Positions 3,317 through 63,642 of a DNA stretch of 64,000 nucleotides are shown here, piece after piece. The notes beneath the pieces were generated by a model. That model was given only the letters and a program-made list of their open reading frames with translations, did not search any database and had not been told where the DNA came from. Each line of letters opens with the position of its first letter. Position 1 is the stretch's first letter. The stretch spans positions 102,362,001-102,426,000 of the forward strand of contig OX597818.1 in the NCBI GenBank assembly GCA_951406725.2, given 5' to 3'. Origin of the DNA: Octopus vulgaris. Lineage: Eukaryota. A program made the translations under genes and the position numbers.

Positions 3317-3361
3317 CACACGCTGACGAGAGGTCAATACCTCGAAACTCGAGTCCGTGTG
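3317..3361 (+). ncRNA. Type I minimal hammerhead ribozyme, copy 3 (inverted arm)
   Basis: CACACG 3317-22, CTGACGA 3323-29, GAGG/CCTC, GAAA 3344-47, GTC 3353-55, CGTGTG 3356-61; predicted cleavage after 3355. Confidence 0.9.
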
Positions 3362-3763
3362 TATCATAAGTTGAAGACGGGAAGGATGACTTCCTTTGCA
3401 AATACTGACAGGACACAGAAAGTGTGTCTATGGCCAGCTGGAGAAGTGTGTCCTCCTGGGGCTAAAAACTACAGTAGCATCCACCCTTAGGGGTTAGCCA
3501 TATTGAAATGGCAAAAATACGTCACGTAGTAATAATATAGTTATCAGTAATAAAAAACTTAATTTCGAAACGTACGTCCGTAGGTTACTTAATATAGTAT
3601 GATTGTCGTCATTTATTTCTCTCTTACCTGCGTTTGCCGTTTAAGTGCTGTGGTTTTACTGAGATCTCCCTTTTAGTAGAAAGAATAGCTATAACTCTTT
3701 GACTGCTATTTCTAAACTCGGTGTGTGGTGAGGCAAATCGTTGCTAAACCCTTAATTACTTAG

Positions 3764-8798: not shown

Positions 8799-9514
8799 TA
8801 CATACTTTTACAAAGACCAGTGAATAAATTATCGAACTTGTTCTGCTGTTCTTTATCTTTAAGACAGCATGGTCGAGCACAGCTATGAATAAAGAATTGA
8901 GTCAGGATTATATAGATTCCACGATTTAATACAATCATACTTAACTTTACCTTGCGATCTTATAATTTAAGACAGTTGAATTATACAAAATAGCTAATAT
9001 TGCCCAGTGAAAGCATGTCAAAATTTCGAGTTTGTCGAAATATTTAACTGTCGTAGAAATATGTTAAAACATTTAGAGCAGCATTTGACCAATCACACTA
9101 TGGAGTGAACCTTCAAATCTGCCTAACCGGTGTCGATATCAGTTTCATTCGACCTATTTTTCTAATCTCATTGATTATATTATAACATGTACTATTTCTT
9201 AATTAATCAATGAGATAGAAAACATTTTAATATATTCTTAAAAGAGGAAAGGCATATTGGAAAAATTAAAATCGGCGTGGGCAGAGACAGAAAAATGTTT
9301 AGCGATCACAGGAAAATATCCTTCAAAATACGATACATCCTTTTCAATAATTTATTGTTTATAACCCTACAGCTGCAAGAAATATTGACAAATAAATAGC
9401 ACAAATAGACTGGACGATACAAAACAATATACATCTGTAAATATTCCTACTACGATATAGTGAAGTTATCTGTGTTTAACTGAAATCTATCAAATAGTTT
9501 TCAAGTTATACGAT

Positions 9515-9901
9515 TTTACTCTTCACTCTTTTACATGTAGTCATGCTGGAGCACCAGCTTTTAGTCGAGCAAATCGACCCCAGGACTTATTCTTTGTAAG
9601 CCTAGTACTTATTCTATCGGTATCTTTTGCCGAACCGCTAAGTTAGGGGGACGTAAGCACACCAGCATCGGTTGTCAAGCGATGTTGGGGGGACAAATAC
9701 AGACACACAAACATATACACACGCATACATATATATATATATATATATATACATATATACGACGGGCTTCTTTCAGTTTCTGTCTACCAAATCCACTCAC
9801 AAGGCTTTATTCGGTCCCAGGCTATAGTAGAAGACACTTGCCCAAGCTGCCACGCAGTTGGACTGAACCCCGAATCATGTGTTTATATACACACACACAT
9901 C

Positions 9902-9955
<54 letters not shown>

Positions 9956-10116
9956 CGACGGGCTTCTTTCAGTTTCTGTCTACCAAATCCACTCACAAGG
10001 TTTTGGTCGGTCCGAGGTTATAGTAGAAAACACTTGCCCAAGGTGCCACGCAGTTGGACTGAACCTGGAACCATGTGGTTGGTAAGCAAGCTACTTACCT
10101 CACAGCCACTCCTGCG
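9515..10116 (-). mobile_element. tRNA-derived SINE family A with internal duplication of the head half
   Basis: Minus-strand head gcaggagtggctgtgaggtaag...ggttccaggttcagtcc (A/B-box-like) followed by ccttgggcaagtg; segment ~9760-9880 repeated at ~9957-10080; multiple homologs in the window. Confidence 0.85.
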
Positions 10117-12449
10117 ACTATATAAATAATTTCTTACATTACAATCCGTGACAGTACTCATATACTAAAGTTGGAGATAGAAGCCCTGGCCATATTTTTT
10201 CAAATGAGATACTATGGCTTTTGCGAATGAAAATTTCATCGAAAAATGCATCTGTCCAGATTCCATTAGTATATATTCAGCGCGAAACGAAAACTGAATA
10301 AATGCGATATATTGTTATATATTTGTTTTCTTTATATATTGTAAGTTTCAATCTAATCGTCCAACTTCATTAAGTTAATTGTTAATTGAACCAAGTGATA
10401 ATATTTTGCTTTGTTTAAGATGCAGAAAATAATAAAGGGTATAATGTTGATCGGTACAAGGAGATGAAATGCTTCGTTTTTCAAGGGATATTCCATCGGA
10501 TATAACAACATAGCAACAGCTTCCAGTCTCAAACAAGCTTTCACCGGTGAGAATCAATTGCATTCATTTGTTTTAACACTAAGCCATCAGAACGTTATAT
10601 GCTACACCTATTAAATAATTAATTTTTCACGAATTTTCTTTTACTTCATTTTATAATCCTTGTGCTTAATGAGAAATAACGGTTTCTTTCTCATTTTCTG
10701 TGATAAATATAAAAGTTAAATAGAAAAAGCAAGCAAATTATGTTCTGGCACTTTTGTTTATTTCTTTAATGTTCATCTGCTAGTTAAATGCAAGCTGAAG
10801 CATAACTAAGTAAACTGACTTGTGTGATTATTAATATCTCAATGCATTTAATGTTTATTTACCGATTTTTCGCTATACCATAATGCTGAATTTTATGATC
10901 AATTGCTTCCATAAATATATGGAAATTAAAATTAATTAAGCTAGAGATATTATTCAAGTAACTATGATTTATAACAATTTTTTAAACTTTTATATATATT
11001 TAATTTATGAAAGATTTTAAATTAGACATTTTTTTTCTTTATTAGTTCTTCCCTATAACTAAATCGGAAGATAATGTAACGTAAAACATAAAGTAAATCA
11101 ATTAAAGAGATTTAATGTTCTACGTACATCATGTTCAACATCACGTTATTCATTTATGGAGGATTTGATTGGGTTTTTCTTATATTTAGCCGACTATTTT
11201 TTTTCTTGAGAATATAATTGCTTTGCTTTCAGTAGAATAAATATCGTGACTTTATGATCCGGTCTTGCGTAGAAAAAGAAGAAAAAGACTTATGAAATTA
11301 TTCATTTATGAATTATTCTCTTCTATTGTAAGAAACTCTTAATATCCACAACCCTCAATTTAATATATACTGCCGAATATTTTCTATCTACAAGACCTGT
11401 TCCATTTGGAGGTTAAACATTTTGATCAAGGATTTAATACATAGAAAAATGTGCATAAGTCTTGTTGCAATAAAGATTCCTTCTGTTGTTGGGGAATGTC
11501 ATGATGAACGTTTTACATACACAACGGTGTTTCTCTTGAAATTACAATTTCCATTCATACAAACAAGCATACAGATACATACACAAACACACACAAACAC
11601 AAGCACACACGCCTTTATATATGCATATGGTTATATATATATATCTGCATATATATTTATCTTTCTAAATATCTATCTATCTACCTATGCATACGTACGT
11701 ACACACACACACACACATATTACATATGATTATGCGTGTGTGATGCATACATTTGTATGAGTGTGTGTGTGTGGGAGTGTATATGTATGAATACATACAT
11801 ATTTGAGATAGTTACATAGATGGGTTGTATTGATGGAAATAGGTATATGGATATACATATAGATATATGTGTGTGTATGGGTGTATGTGTATATATTTAT
11901 AGCTTTTCCCTACATTCCACTACCAGCTAAAATGATTTATACCTAATGTACGTTAAAGTTCTGTCCCCTACTTCTAAATATTTCCCACATGATATACATA
12001 TCGTCTTAAATTGAAGATATGTATATCATGCAACTCTTCTATATCGTAATCGTTCACTGCAACTCGTCATCACATTCTGCAGCTTATATACTCATCGCGT
12101 GTATTTTGGCTGCTAAAGAAATCAAAATGTTTTCCACTTTAATTAACTATATGAAACAGTTTTCTTCCCGAGAGGTATCGTTTATAGTCATAGAAGCATT
12201 TAATCTTCTGAATCCTAGGGCCGATGTTTATATGTTAATAATCTATGTCATTAACTGCGATGCTTCTCACATTCATCAGACAATACGAGATCGGTGAGAG
12301 ATTAGGTGGACGGAAATTTAAATGCGCATGTCCGATGCACATACATTCACACACAAACATACTTGAGTGTGTGTGTATATGTGTCTTTGTTTGGGTATGT
12401 ATCTTTGTGGATTTGTGTGGATTTGTGTGTTTGTGTGTGTGTGTGTGTG

Positions 12450-12640
12450 TATGTCCTTGTGTTTGTGTTTTGCCCCTACTACCACTTGACAACCGTTGAA
12501 GGTGTTTATGCGTCCCCAAAGCTTGCGCTTCGGCAAAAACGATAGATTAAGTTTCAGACTTTCAAAAGAAGTACTCGTATAGATCCATTCATTCGACTGT
12601 AGTTTCAATATGGCGCCGCAGTAGACTGAACATGCAAAAC
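12450..12640 (+). mobile_element. SINE family A-like 3' half, degenerate
   Basis: cttgacaaccg...cggcaaaag.gatag block is the reverse complement of the family A tail. Confidence 0.5.
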
Positions 12641-12926
12641 ATACACATTAAAAGGTAACCTAAATCGCATTTTTAATAGCATTTATAACACATAGGACTA
12701 CTAACATACACGTAGCAAATTTTGGTTAGCTTAGTAAATAGCACAGCGCATCTAAATTAAGTAATTACGTCATTTGTGGTTGAATTTATTAGCTATCATT
12801 TCAATTAATTTGAGAATAACTAACATCTAGCAAACAACATGTCGTTCTGTATGGAAATTAACACTAGACAGGTGGAATAATTATGCAATTAATACAACCA
12901 CTAATCAACAAATAGAAACGAACCAG

Positions 12927-13002
<76 letters not shown>

Positions 13003-13216
13003 ATCTTTACTACACATTATCTATCCTTCCTTTTCCTTGCAATGAGGGAAAATGATTTAAAAATTATATACAAACATATAATTGTTTTCGTAACGAAGCA
13101 GAAAAAATATACGTTTAAATTAACACGTTTAATTAAATCGATAGATTTAGCAGCTAGCAAACAGTTTAGAGGGGAAAAACGAAATTCTATAAAATACTTA
13201 CTAAAATACTTACACG

Positions 13217-14240
13217 ATTGACCGAGAGTGGGGAGTCGAGAATCAATCAAACCCAGTCAGCACGGGAATGATCTTGGAAACGAATACGATTATTCATTCG
13301 AAGGGCGAACGAAATGCAAACAACTTTGGTTGCAAGCTGTGCTATAGAACCTTTGCAACTGTGAGAAGCTTCAAGATACATCAGGGAAAGACTTGTGAGA
13401 AGAGGACAGATCAGTGTGGATCATCAGATCGTAAAACACGTGGCAAATCATCCCCGGACTTAAACCACAGCGGATCGATAAATGCTACAGCAGAGACCTC
13501 TTCACCTGATGAAACTACAAGTCATGGAACTGGTGCATCTGATAATACTCAGAGGAAACCGAGGGTTTTCTGGCCTGCTGCTAATGAGAAAGTGAAATAT
13601 AAAGAGATTGAAAACAAAGTTTGTCGGGCTCTTTATAAAATGACAGGCCCTACAGTGGAGAAACTGGGTAAATTATCAAGCTCAATATACGATATAGGAA
13701 AATATTTATTTTGAGTAAAAGAGAATATCCGACTAGAGAAAGGAAAGTGTGGAGCAAGCCACCGTAACCAGCCGCTGCTACCTCTACATGGGCTAAATCA
13801 TCTCTCGGGACCTGATATCGAATTCCAGATTGGGGACATCAGGAAGAGAGAGGTGAATGACTTCGTAAGAAAAGCTAGAGCAAAGAGTGTCCCAGGAGGT
13901 GATGGTGTCTCATATAAATAATGTGAAGTCGGATGGGATGTAGAAGGTTCGTTGGACACAGTGTGAGACGACTGTTGTTATCGCTAGGCCTAAATCATCG
14001 TAAAGTCAATACCACCATGACTGATATCCAATCTACAGTGGAGAAGGCTAGCTACTGGATTTGGTTAAAAAGAGACGATGAGCGATGGCTAGAAAGTTAT
14101 TGAGCTTAACTTGATAACCAGCTGATCTAGCAAGCGGGGCCTCATATCTGTGAGGGGGGCCGGTGCGCATTGATGCCGTCGAGAGGTAGGCCCCGAAACG
14201 GCGCGCATTCTCTCCTGATGACCCCATACACTTGCTGGCT
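13217..14240 (+). mobile_element. Internally deleted HERO-like (R2-group, REL endonuclease) non-LTR retrotransposon
   Basis: N-terminal zinc finger CKLC...HQGKTC; RVFWPAANEK; pre-RT motif EVNDFVRKARAKSVPGGDGVSYK (~13820-13918); abrupt jump to C-terminal VEKASYWIWLKR; stop at 14101-14103; structured 3' UTR. Confidence 0.8.
14127..14238 (+). ncRNA. Pseudoknotted hammerhead-like structured RNA in the HERO 3' UTR
   Basis: GUC 14178-80, GAAA 14195-98 and CUGAUGA 14215-21, with seven complementary helices (see findings). Confidence 0.6.
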
Positions 14241-15099
14241 TCTGGAATATGGAGATTTTGACTGGTAGCACTTGCATGTGCAAGTTGTTTGCAGGACATA
14301 GTTATATCTAAAAAAAATGTATCGATGGTCTTTTTGAAGCCAAAGGCTCATAAGACTTGCTTCTCGGATTCTGTGGTATATACATAAACTTCAATTGGAA
14401 GCCGGTCATCTGCAGGATTATTCATATTTACCAGCTGTGCGCACTGGAACAACATGAAATGAAGTTTTTTACCAAAAAATAAAAATGCATCTTCCAATGC
14501 AAGATTCTGACCACAATCTTACAATCATAAGTGCAACACCCTAATCCATAAGTCACCCGCCTCTGCATACACGGACGTAGCGTCTGTACATGATGTACAA
14601 ATAACTGAAATTGTATACATTCATGCATTCTTCAGTTATTCTCACCAACCAAAATATCGGAACGTATTGCAATGGAATTCTTTACTTTAACACATTTGAT
14701 TGTGATGTATTAGCACCAGTTATACTGAATAGTACGGAAATAAAATTATAGAAAGAATCATATTTACCTATTTGCTCTGTATAAAATTATACTACTGCTA
14801 TGTTGCTGTGTGCAAAACTTAAAATCGCTTGATATCACTTGATTTATACAAATGCTTTGTGTATATGTTACGGTTATAATAGGATTACTGTCTGAATTAA
14901 GTGTCGACGTAACATGTTATGGATCGCTGTATATAATGTTAAGATAATTTATGGTGTTAAAATAAATATATTATTCAACAATGCATGATATTTTAAATTA
15001 GAGGTATGACATTTAACTCTCTCCAGTAGTGGGGTCCTCGTTCCAAACTTCACGGTTTTCAGGATTGTGGACGACTTCTTACCACTATTGTCCCCATGC

Positions 15100-15520
15100 C
15101 TACTCTGATCTAGAGAAGTAGCTCCTTAACTATTGGTTAACTAGCAAGACATTTGGGAGTACGAAACTCGTAGACACTAACTAGAAACTACCCGACTAAA
15201 AAGGGAAGCCCTGATTCCAAAACTCCTCTGCTTTGCAGCTGTACCTTACCATGGGGAGGGCTTCGTGACAAACCCTAAGGAAAAGTCCGGATTCAGATAA
15301 CACATCCTCATTCTGGCAACTTCTGCGCTTGTGCTTGTGCTAAAATGAAATGGCCGTGATGTTCCTCTGGATTCGTCGGTGACGTGAAGAGAAGGAACAC
15401 TCCACATGGACAGCAGCTTGTCTCCACCGCATCCTCCCCTCTGTTGGGTACTATTGTGTACCCTATACTGGAAAGACTGTTCCAGTAGACCCGATGCTAG
15501 CATTTTCATCAATGGTTATT
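15100..15520 (+). mobile_element. Probable degraded LINE (RTE/RTEX-like) 5' region
   Basis: GC-richer island whose motif order resembles RTE-type 5' UTRs (recognition from memory); no ORF support. Confidence 0.3.
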
Positions 15521-18500
15521 AAAGACAACTGAAGTCTCCAAATAAGTCTATGAAGTTATATTATCATTTTGTATATTGCTCAAATCTGAAAAACTGTATA
15601 CTACAAAAGGACACTGCTGTATGCTTACTTAATTTAGTTTTCTTTCATATTTGTCGTACCTCATAATTTACAATACTCACATCAAAGTTTATATCCGCTA
15701 TAGATTTAACTTACTTCGTAATAACGTTTTAAGTTCGCTCAACTTATTCCCAGAAAGATTAATTATTTTCTCAATTGAAATTCTGTTTAAAAATAGCAGA
15801 TATATATTATTTTAAAATGTGATGTGTATTGTCAATTTTGAGCTGCTGTGTTAATCACATATCTGTACGCTGTATCGTGCTATATTTCTACGAATGGTTT
15901 GATATAGTTAGGTACATGGGATTAAAATATATTTGATTAACTTCCTTATCACAATTTCTAATTAGCTACAGACGATGTTATGAATAAATTTGCATAAAAT
16001 TTTGGAAACCACCATAGATTGATACTCGTTCAATTCAATGTAAATAGCAATTTTGGTTATCTAATTAACTAATAAATCAATTAATGTGTACGGCATTATT
16101 AATGAATTAACTAGAAAATTCGATGAATATGTCCTTGGGGTATACTTATCGTTTTTCTTTCACGTATACTCGTACATATATATACATACACACACACACA
16201 TAAAACACGCACACATACACAGATATATACTTGGGGACATATGGATGTATATGTATGTATAGGCACACACCTATGCAACAAAATGCTCTCATCATCGTTC
16301 GTATTGTAGGAACGATGATGAGAGAATTTTGTAAAATGAAAAGGTCTAAAGAAAAACAAATATGTATATGTCGGGCTTCAAACACTTTTGCTTCCTTGTT
16401 TGGCTTCCTTTTCTTATTTCATTTAGATTTGATTACCATTGCTTATACTTCATCTCATTTCTTATATCATTCTCCTTTGCTTCCATTTCTTTCCTTTATA
16501 CCTAGGGGTTTTTATTAGACTTGTCCGTTATTTTCCCTCGCCATTTTCTGTATTTGAGGCATCGAAACAATGAGTGTATGTATGAATTTCTCAGTGCACG
16601 GCGACAAACACTTCACAATCTGAGTAAGAAGCAAGAAATATCAATTTATACCTAACGTGTCTGCATAAATAATATTGCATTTTGTATTTGCATCATATTA
16701 TATATCATATGTGTTTACGTGTTTGTATACATATCTATGCAAATATCTGTGCATTTTGTTCGCATGTAAGGGCATAAGAAGAGTTTGTGTATAATTTACC
16801 TCAATGCAATGAAATTATATTTTCCAACACTAGATTCTGATTAGCATACAATAAATTGTATATTTTGTTTCTTGATTGGAGTAACTTACTTGAATGAATA
16901 CTATACATACTTATGTATACAGGGAAATGCATGCACGTTTCAGAGATTTTAAATAGGCATTAAATTGATTCTCATGTTGTAGAAATTCAAAAGGAAAAAA
17001 TTTCAAAAGAAAACAAAAATCATACGTCAGAATGATCCAAAATAAAGGCAAAAAATATAGTCACCCTTACCGTCCACCCAATTCATCCACCAGGCTTGGA
17101 TGCAATTGATAAAAATACTTTCATTTTGTCTGTCAACCGCAGATATGACGTCGCCATCACTGCCATACGCGTTACAAGCCAAGTGTTTGTTTTCATATTA
17201 GGGAACAGATGATTCATTATTGCCTTCTTTTTCATTGTAATTATAGAAAGATACTTAGATTTTGGAGATTATTTCCCTTGGTTTATTCTTAAATAATTTA
17301 AATAATATATTTGTAGAATTTCACAATGTGAACATGTATTAATATGCCATCAATTTCTGATAAGTAGCTTAGCACATTAATACAATGTATTTATAGTTTG
17401 CACGTGTCGATTTATAAATGTTTACAGATAACAATAATTATCGTTACGGAATACATTCTAATTCGGAGATGATGTACGAAATGACGATGTCAGTAAATGT
17501 TTAAACAAAGCAGTACAGATATGTAATTATATTAAACCTCAGCTTAAAGCATTAGTGAAGAAATTAAAGTAGATATAATTGCATTGCCTGCGTAAATGTG
17601 ACGCATATATGGCAATAAATCACAGTGAAGATCTTGCTATTAATCCCTGGAATAATCTAATAAAACACGCTAAAAAGGAAATGAGGCTGATCAACATAAA
17701 TATTCTGATGGAAATATATTAAAGATTTGTTTACCACAGAAGACTATATAGAATGTATACTGCACATAATGATTTAGTACCAACTTCTACCCAGCGATGT
17801 AACTTTCCCTACCCAACAAGTCATTGTATTTAGTGAAAGAATATTACGACACATGTGACATATATTTTAAATATATACGATAAATATAAACTTCAGTGAA
17901 ATTAATTTGATATCGATTTAATATTGAGTTCTATGTCGAGCATATTTTTCATTCGTCCGTATATATTTAAGTACTTTAAACGTTGTTCTACTGACTATCA
18001 ACGTTTTGTCTGTTGCCACTTATGATAGACGAGCAAAACGCTCCCCTGTCCAATGGACTGTGCTGAGTTGTCAAACAATTAAGCCAAATTTTCTCAAAAC
18101 AACTTGTCCGACCGTCCGATAAGCCTCCCCTTTGAGAAACACTGATTTAACATAGATTTGAGACACCAGCAAAAGAAGAAATAAAGTTGGACTTTTTTTT
18201 TCTATTCCACAGAAAAACGATTTCCCACGGCTTTATTGATCGCATTCTCATCTGGAAACGTTTTTTGTAATTTTTTCAAGATTTATACACGCCCTGATAC
18301 CGTTGGTATCTCCATATGATATTTGAGCGCAATCAGATGGACGATGCCCGAGATCCTAGAAGACACACACACAGAAAGACAGAACGGATTTTATATAAGA
18401 GATAATATGTAGCAGATGAGTTTGGGAAGGATTTTAATTTCCCTTTTAAACAAACTACGCATATGTACAAACATGCAATATTTTAAAGTTCAGCTTCATT

Positions 18501-63005: not shown

Positions 63006-63642
63006 TGATACAAAATGGGACAAGAACGCAAGACATCTGGACAGCTAGGTGATACAAAAAGGGACAACAAATTATCCAGATAGACGATACAAAGAAAACA
63101 AGGACTGGTCATTAGAAGTTTTCTTTCCTCAGTCAAGCACCAGATTACCCTCGCAATTTCGGCTGATTATTCTTGAGATTGCTTCAATCTGGCCAGCCCC
63201 CCGAAATCTAAATAAGAGTATTAGATTCCTTGGAAGGAAGCACCGGATCTATACAAAAACAAGGACGGAAAAAAGCGGACAATGTTGCCCAAATATAAAT
63301 ACAGTAAAAATACAACAAAATGATAATAGAACATAACGACAGGTGTATTTCGACTAAGGCCGAATTGAATTAAGCTGGCGCGTGTGGAAATGGAGCCTTA
63401 CGGTAGATATACAAAAGTTTCATAAACACAGGGAAGAATATCGATATTGCTCGGACAACAATCAAACAAAGGAAGAAAGAACAGGCTTAGTCGAGGCAGT
63501 AACGTGGGAAGAGAAGAGAGGGAAGTAGAAACAGAGGAACAGAAGAATTATGGAGGTGCGAGGAAAAATGACAGGAATACAGTGAAATGAAAAGAGCCGC
63601 ACAAGATTTAGAAAAATGTGCACTTACAAATAAGAGACCAAA

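Follow-up and report, generated by a model that had tools for sequence, protein, structure and literature searches.

A conserved hammerhead-type motif with an opened core in the 3' UTR of HERO-like retrotransposons, and a possible circular RNA template

The 3' UTR of HERO-like LINEs almost certainly holds a conserved hammerhead-type structure, as judged from sequence comparison, whose catalytic core is opened between A9 and G10.1 by two additional helices. The structure was analyzed in detail in the window, i.e., the whole stretch of 64,000 nt of Octopus vulgaris DNA that was examined here, in which the motif is predicted with good confidence to self-cleave after C14180. The insertion pattern of the host element is best explained by excision of an RNA unit by two such ribozymes, circularisation, and reverse transcription that may proceed beyond one turn, a scenario that we regard as reasonably probable.

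Host element and anatomy of the motif

The motif resides in a defective copy of a non-LTR element. The following features could be assigned in the window (coordinates of the window and strand):

13213..14299, plus strand: copy of a HERO-like RLE non-LTR element (unit 3738 nt), truncated at its 5' end and with internal deletions (BLAST against full-length copies)
14101..14103, plus strand: stop codon TGA of the element ORF, 24 nt before the first helix
14117..14121, plus strand: 5' strand of an outer helix that encloses the domain (partner 14262-14266)
14127..14139, plus strand: 5' strands of P0 (14127-34) and Pa (14136-39), from pairing and comparison
14140..14155, plus strand: hairpin HP, one arm of a four-way junction, from pairing and comparison
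14156..14161, plus strand: 5' strand of Pb, the functional stem II, with G14156 as the G10.1 equivalent
14162..14168, plus strand: 5' strand of Pc (partner 14203-09), which connects the distal parts of stems I and II
14175..14185, plus strand: block S, comprising a stem III strand, C17 at 14180 and a stem I strand (predicted cut 3' of C14180)
14189..14202, plus strand: block G, comprising the Pb 3' strand up to C11.1 (14194), GAAA and a stem III strand
14203..14225, plus strand: Pc 3' strand, stem I strand (14210-14), CUGAUGA (14215-21) and Pa 3' strand (14222-25)
14231..14238, plus strand: P0 3' strand, from pairing
14262..14299, plus strand: 3' strand of the outer helix, terminal hairpin (14270-85) and fixed 3' end of insertions, with no poly(A)

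The window copy corresponds to about positions 195-741, 1051-1209 and 3376-3736 of the unit and has two internal deletions. Intact copies contain one ORF of 1112-1175 amino acids with C2H2 finger, RT, CCHC and RLE motifs, the RLE being represented by PD..ELT.P.E. The sole domain found in this ORF by Pfam was RVT_1 (residues 376-620), and the closest solved structures were R2 proteins at E about 1e-17, R2 and L1 being the best solved relatives. The RT of the element contains ten short motifs that occur in the rows HERO-1_BF and HEROTn of the supplementary alignment of PMC7650587; judged by eye, the same motifs are mostly missing from the Utopia, R5 and R4 rows, and the HERO-1_HR row is more distant. 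On the basis of these motifs, compared by eye, the host appears to be a HERO-like RLE LINE, in agreement with the HERO retrotransposon named in an earlier note on this DNA.

That note had also proposed seven helices around a hammerhead core, beginning 24 nt past the stop codon. In the window sequence, all seven are fully paired at these places (G-U allowed), the core letters C14180, GAAA (14195-98) and CTGATGA (14215-21) are all present, and the TGA lies at the proposed distance. The 5' strand of Pa pairs with the bases directly 3' of A9, and Pa and HP are inserted between A9 and G10.1 as a four-way junction, the fourth arm of which is the G-A stack of the core. The linker between stem I and stem II is GTA. 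The base after A9 and position 11.1 are both C and form a mismatch, on which the window copy and 29 further genomic copies agree, so that it is a family trait and not a mutation. The earlier note had omitted the outer helix, the terminal hairpin and the partial-tandem structure described below. The outer helix was recognized in the fold of the L043 3' UTR and, by eye, in different yet complementary strands of L056-L058. The fixed 3' end near 14299 would represent the start site of the RT.

A search of positions 9000-16000 against Rfam produced no match at the motif site and gave microsatellite-driven noise only. Nested folding of the motif region was insignificant (z = -1.06), which was expected because the fold is pseudoknotted and pseudoknots are unscored by the method. 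When the descriptor introduced below was applied to the whole window, it returned the motif site with a score of 73 and one weaker match on the minus strand near 63180, which has a score of 54 (below the threshold of 60) and is probably due to chance. Two other readings of the letters were ruled out. An upstream CTGTGA is no second, decayed CUGAUGA block, since other copies have CAGTGA and the stretch is a hairpin strand, and a canonical SGC stem II cannot pair in most loci and is at chance level in the alignment.

Conservation and covariation across homologous loci

To describe conservation, we used the best 80 of 248 loci with homologous C-termini, obtained from metagenome assemblies and including near-duplicates; 12 of the 80 have less than 200 nt of 3' sequence. 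With no structure filter, CTGANGA was found 3' of the ORF match in 65 of these best 80 loci. An S-G-C core in which stems I and III each reach 4 bp or more was present in 47 of the 80, and 39 of these 47 also have the upstream arm.

A descriptor was then composed of Pa-HP-Pb and the S-G-C core, in which U16.1, an H17 other than G and helices of at least 3 bp were imposed by design, and its score threshold of 60 was picked after the scores were known. It parsed 47 of the best 80 loci at any score and 42 at a score of at least 60, and 38 of the 68 loci with at least 200 nt of 3' sequence. No parse was obtained from 1950 dinucleotide shuffles at any score or from the reverse strands of the 80 loci, and the single match among 360 upstream windows comes from L087, where a related family contributes another copy of the motif. 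When the arm alone was shuffled, 101 of 2150 sequences still parsed. Many of the 38 loci that fail at a score of at least 60 are short or visibly decayed, and no motif is visible in some unparsed loci (e.g., L063, L115, L122 and L129). Within the window's own family, the strict parse was passed by 20 of 30 copies and failed by 10. Helix sequences differ among the parsed loci, the architecture is the same, and the motif is placed 3' of the ORF.

The non-redundant set consists of 21 sequences less than 80% alike, including the window. All 21 have a four-way junction without any unpaired base, although the descriptor allowed one on either side of HP, which bears out the earlier proposal that stem II is split into helices via an upstream strand carrying a hairpin. 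The G10.1 equivalent, which was not imposed, is G in all 21 sequences, the first pair of Pb being G-C in 19 and G-U in two. The G16.2-C15.2 pair is likewise kept throughout the 21 sequences, each of the four letters occurs at N7, and most helix positions show four to six pair types. The cleavage-site triplet is GUC in nine, GUU in six and GUA in six of the sequences (NUH being imposed by the descriptor). In 18 of the 21, no canonical stem II can form, and in the other three it is limited to 2 bp; the base 3' of A9 is unable to start a stem with 11.1 in 40 of the 47 core loci. When strands are exchanged between loci, pairing is infrequent (Pa 38, HP 78, Pb 65, stem I 30 and stem III 153 of 420), the own-locus pairing in this comparison being largely built in by the descriptor.

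Covariation was counted in two sequence-only MAFFT alignments, which are less circular than the descriptor. In the window group of seven sequences, including three loci failed by the parser, 92.8% of the positions are paired (95% in Pc), as compared with 44-58% in slid controls; 12 of 33 pairs changed on both sides, while shuffles gave 5.3 +/- 1.5 such changes, with 0 of 500 as high. The second alignment contains 14 of the 21 sequences, selected for similar spacing, and has 82.7% pairing; in 23 of its 27 pairs, both partners have changed. Here, Pa (97.6% paired, 6/6 pairs changed on both sides), stem I (98.5%, 5/5) and stem III (97%, 3/5) are well preserved, and a canonical stem II is at chance level (48.6%). 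HP (53%) and Pb (69%) have poor scores in this alignment, which we attribute, by eye, to a register slip of one column. A 33-sequence alignment with misregistered groups was left uncounted. Overall, the hammerhead core and the split stem II of the earlier note, and the covariation of helices that it considered, are supported.

Protein homologues of the element number 228, many of them named from fish. In six fish-named proteins, the C-terminus corresponds to the translated 5' arm of the motif, and in matching loci a TGA follows right after the predicted cut. This supports, for one half of the motif (its 5' arm), the similar arrangement that the earlier note mentions for fish HERO 3' ends. In a fish-type branch (L111, L130, L118 and L124; P0032, P0099, P0105, P0109, P0111 and P0112), the reading frame crosses the 5' arm and ends at the post-cut TGA.

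Insertion pattern of the host element

Matches to the tail of the element in the 2.8-Gb genome amounted to 2370 first-look candidates. The 3' ends of genomic copies are fixed and lie about 120 nt beyond the predicted cut; the copies lack poly(A), and their cut site is intact. Their 3' ends match 0, 1, 2, 3, 4, 5 or 6 further bases of the junction in 8, 22, 14, 2, 6, 3 and 2 of 57 rows, respectively (some loci being counted twice). Short copies are abundant and flanked by unrelated sequence. Clear target-site duplications were not found; matches of 7-8 nt occur in 7 of the 57 rows (again with some loci twice) and are AT-rich or overlap the element.

Full-length copies start with a 5'-truncated copy of their own tail, which is connected to the 3738-nt unit by a constant head-to-tail junction. 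The junction loci are the top 30 of 40 matches, with one pair being a local duplication. Among these 30, the upstream repeat ranges from 26 to 1976 nt and reaches past the predicted cut in 23. No 5' truncation was found within 10 nt of the predicted cut in these loci or in 30 loci found by the 3' part only. In a search with the 5' UTR alone, 27 of 30 copies extend at least 20 nt upstream, one ends at the junction and two stop inside; since 27 of 30 continue past it, the junction is no RNA end. Moreover, of 91 alleles private to the downstream tail of a locus, 19 recur in the upstream repeat of the same locus, as compared with 9 of 1076 in the upstream repeats of other loci (control). The two repeats of a locus were accordingly read from one template. 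A nearest-neighbour test on the raw distance between upstream and downstream copies gave no preference for the same locus. A full tandem array was not detected, no two of the 40 junction matches being one unit apart. Of 27 motif-bearing metagenome contigs whose downstream sequence measures 300 nt or more, 8 continue past the tail into the start of the same kind of ORF, these being collapsed assemblies.

Two loci, L007 and L012, have a foreign 5' flank (286 and 1390 nt, respectively) in common with the L146/L147 locus and normal 3' ends, which implies that uncut linear read-through RNA also served as a template. On three contigs (L007, L012, L146 and L147), a 369-nt tail copy follows a shared foreign flank that measures at least 1390 nt and has AATAAA at its end, as a chimeric read-through lineage. 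In the young loci L043, L044 and L054, a common difference of five versus six G between the upstream and downstream copy was observed, as one linear master would give; it sits in a homopolymer, and other loci differ.

A 1283-nt contig of run X1 was also noted. It begins at position 926 of L043, crosses the head-to-tail junction, continues with 533 other letters and returns to positions 700-947; aligned to L043:700-1420, it closes on itself as an internally deleted unit of about 1250 nt. Its status as RNA is guessed, and a tandem DNA array would look alike.

Proposed life cycle and competing explanations

A circle made by two cuts and ligation, and copied from an internal start, is likely to account for the insertion pattern, and we consider it fairly probable that circular RNA serves as template in a main route. 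According to this proposal, the core would stack on Pb (G12.A9 on G10.1-C11.1) and Pa on HP, so that the usual active site would be rebuilt; the alternative stacking of the junction would be inactive, and Pc would act as a tether between stems I and II. The transcript of a partial tandem would contain two ribozymes, and both cuts would release a 3738-nt monomer, the ends of which would stay held by the helices of the ribozyme itself and could be ligated by the ribozyme or by a host ligase. The element protein would nick host DNA and prime internally near the terminal hairpin, using a few bases of microhomology. Copying could halt anywhere, which would leave mostly short copies, and some products longer than one unit would renew the copies with two ribozymes.

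Since copies end about 120 nt past the cut, the cut is not the maker of the 3' end. This position and the intact site speak against simple 3'-end processing, one of the functions put forward in the earlier note; the ligation that it also envisaged fits better, by way of a circular template. Some copies, to judge from the shared foreign flanks, are made from uncut linear RNA.

Linear RNA is central to the alternative in which a hammerhead-derived fold, non-catalytic or very slow, is bound by protein to place internal initiation, with read-through templates, and tandems arising by re-priming or gene conversion. A fold for RT recognition was also the alternative offered in the earlier note. We consider this unlikely. 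It is consistent with the uncut site in genomic copies, with the linear read-through templates documented in L007 and L012, with the 5-G/6-G pattern in three loci and with the fact that no precedent was found for a split stem II; R2 3' UTRs are structured protein-recognition modules according to the accessible part of PMC13708176. However, the catalytic letters, including the unimposed G10.1, are kept while all helices and N7 vary and the ORF ends are 37-56% identical to the query, and a purely linear lineage would shrink the upstream repeat and would not yield private alleles common to both repeats.

Those shared alleles do not separate the circular template from a second alternative, in which an active ribozyme leaves a nicked or linear monomer as template and the RT, having started internally, arrives after ~120 nt at the cut 5' end, from where it jumps onto the 3' end of either this molecule or a different one. 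This model would explain the constant junction, the upstream repeats and the shared private alleles equally well, and the cut halves would remain paired via Pa, Pb, Pc and stem III. Nevertheless, template jumps usually leave stops or extra bases, and for this reason the seamless cut site in aligned copies counts against a jump, as does the lack of 5' truncations within 10 nt of the cut in both sets of 30 loci. We hold it to be distinctly unlikely, even if the R2 RT is known for end-to-end template jumping (PMC12222951, in the part available).

It is very improbable that new copies simply land exactly at the 3' ends of older, truncated ones, with the ribozyme merely freeing the transcript from upstream RNA: short copies are indeed abundant (2370 first-look candidates), and Penelope-like elements tend to insert into or beside existing copies according to the available portion of a review (PMC6765202), but the private alleles common to upstream and downstream repeats largely refute this idea, a repeat with the invariant joint is found at 27 of 30 full 5' ends, and the short copies sit in unrelated flanks.

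We see a somewhat better than even chance that a branch of R2-group LINEs adopted a hammerhead-driven circular-RNA cycle independently of Penelope elements. Such a branch would have used a fourth break point in the core, closed by the perfect four-way junction, which could in turn be an on/off stacking switch. If true, the genomes of fish and invertebrates would host autonomous, coding RNA circles of about 3.7 kb that undergo rolling target-primed reverse transcription.

Relation to known ribozymes and retroelements

The block order GUC-GAAA-CUGAUGA, which the earlier note took as fitting none of the hammerhead types I, II and III, is that of the published type SGC, and the new architecture claimed there is confined to the A9/G10.1 opening with its two extra helices. 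As described in the accessible text of Eckert 2023 (PMC10085705), type SGC hammerheads have the S-G-C order, a linker of ~3 nt and a helix tying stems I and II, and hammerheads of this order cleave in vitro at 0.007-0.19 per minute. The same text takes CUGAnGA and its adjacent paired bases to be contiguous, in a block without interruption, and derives types SGC, CSG and GCS, which are permuted in a non-circular way, from metatranscriptomes or metagenomes (SGC from metatranscriptomes only), with a known organism only for one weak bacterial GCS candidate. The HERO motif resembles type SGC, as far as this text describes it, in block order, doubly pseudoknotted core, linker of ~3 nt between stems I and II, helix tethering these stems and full core conservation. 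It differs in that its block C is broken between A9 and G10.1, so that the SGC stem II cannot form, and in being found in animal retrotransposons. As regards hammerheads in general, the motif has the CUGANGA, GAAA and NUH letters, covarying stems I and III, and a G10.1-C11.1 pair supplied by an upstream strand, but its stem II does not come from the strand directly after A9.

While the S-G-C order is already known, no earlier description of the A9/G10.1 opening was found, which would leave this opening as the new element of the structure. Single extra bases are tolerated at the A9/G10.1 link of hammerheads. Our literature search, with subscription journals mostly outside its scope, retrieved no report of a HERO hammerhead, a stem IV variant or an A9/G10.1 opening, and an earlier notice is possible. 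No such motif appears in the accessible parts of PMC3088659, PMC10162972, PMC13725137, PMC13580325, PMC12222951, PMC10294476 and PMC9004415, of which PMC13725137 mentions hammerhead variants with additional helices.

Among retroelements, Penelope-like elements are the closest parallel in lifestyle: in the available portions of PMC11167929 and PMC6765202, they are described with partial tandems, hammerheads in pseudo-LTRs, internal RT initiation and a proposed circular RNA. The HERO-like element similarly shows partial-tandem insertions with a hammerhead-type motif in the repeat. Unlike Penelope-like elements, which have a telomerase-like RT, a GIY-YIG nuclease and mostly minimal hammerheads in these descriptions, it has an R2-group RT, an RLE and a predicted ribozyme that is large, complete and permuted. 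With R2 and other RLE elements, as covered by the parts of the sources at hand, it shares a single ORF with zinc finger, RT, CCHC and RLE, a structured 3' UTR and a self-cleaving motif (here a predicted one). In R2, a 5' HDV-like ribozyme defines a linear template (PMC13708176 and PMC6765202, accessible parts), whereas the HERO motif is hammerhead-like and located inside the 3' UTR, and the HERO-like element produces inserts longer than one unit. Finally, the cycle proposed for retrozymes likewise involves two cuts, circularisation and reverse transcription of the circle; retrozymes, in the descriptions available, are non-coding and have type I or III hammerheads, unlike the HERO-like element, which is an autonomous coding LINE of 3.7 kb.

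The split motif breaks the assumption that the CUGAnGA block is indivisible, and descriptors requiring the usual stem II would miss the class. It places a non-circularly permuted hammerhead in animal genomes at high copy number, unseen by Rfam. The data also suggest that an RLE LINE starts internally on circular RNA and copies it, and the long-proposed, unproven circular stage of hammerhead retroelements becomes directly testable in a system with intact and young copies. An RT capable of internal priming on circular RNA free of poly(A) would be of interest to those who build R2-type gene-insertion tools.

Further features of the element and its copies

Internal deletions with differing breakpoints are common (L149, L152, L153, L158, L160, L164, L165, L204, L210 and the window copy), often joining unit positions 680-830 to 3320-3440, in a sample of short loci that favours their detection. 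They have no GT-AG and frequently show microhomology, on which grounds splicing was ruled out as their source; they are probably RT skips. Pairing between distant segments, considered as a cause of the clustered deletions, lacked significance: among 200 random pairs, 20 were as strong. L006 and L013, on different contigs, have the same internal tail duplication, with its break right after the GAAA of the motif.

A tRNA-like segment with A-box and B-box was observed between the stop codon and the motif in the 3' UTRs of L072, L076, L091 and L109. The pattern, fitted afterwards, occurs in 4 of 81 sequences, as compared with 0 of 360 and 0 of 81 in controls; ARAGORN detected no tRNA in seven loci. 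This segment could be a Pol III promoter for the downstream unit of a partial tandem. In the 5' UTR, repeated GGAAAGAC words are located in the loops of small hairpins (L043:1090-1220; also L062, L066, L069, L114, L117, L125 and L130) and are kept across distant families, possibly as protein-binding or translation elements.

One distant RT match was found among the viral contigs scanned. Another RT ORF of at least 418 amino acids starts directly past the 3' end of the element at L043:4748-6001; its motifs resemble the R4 rows, and it is possibly a nested insertion. L052 contains inverted and rearranged element copies within 10 kb, including an inverted ORF segment beside a 5' end. The contig L087 has the motif twice, at 1109 and about 4830 (about 3.7 kb apart), in diverged copies that belong to related families.
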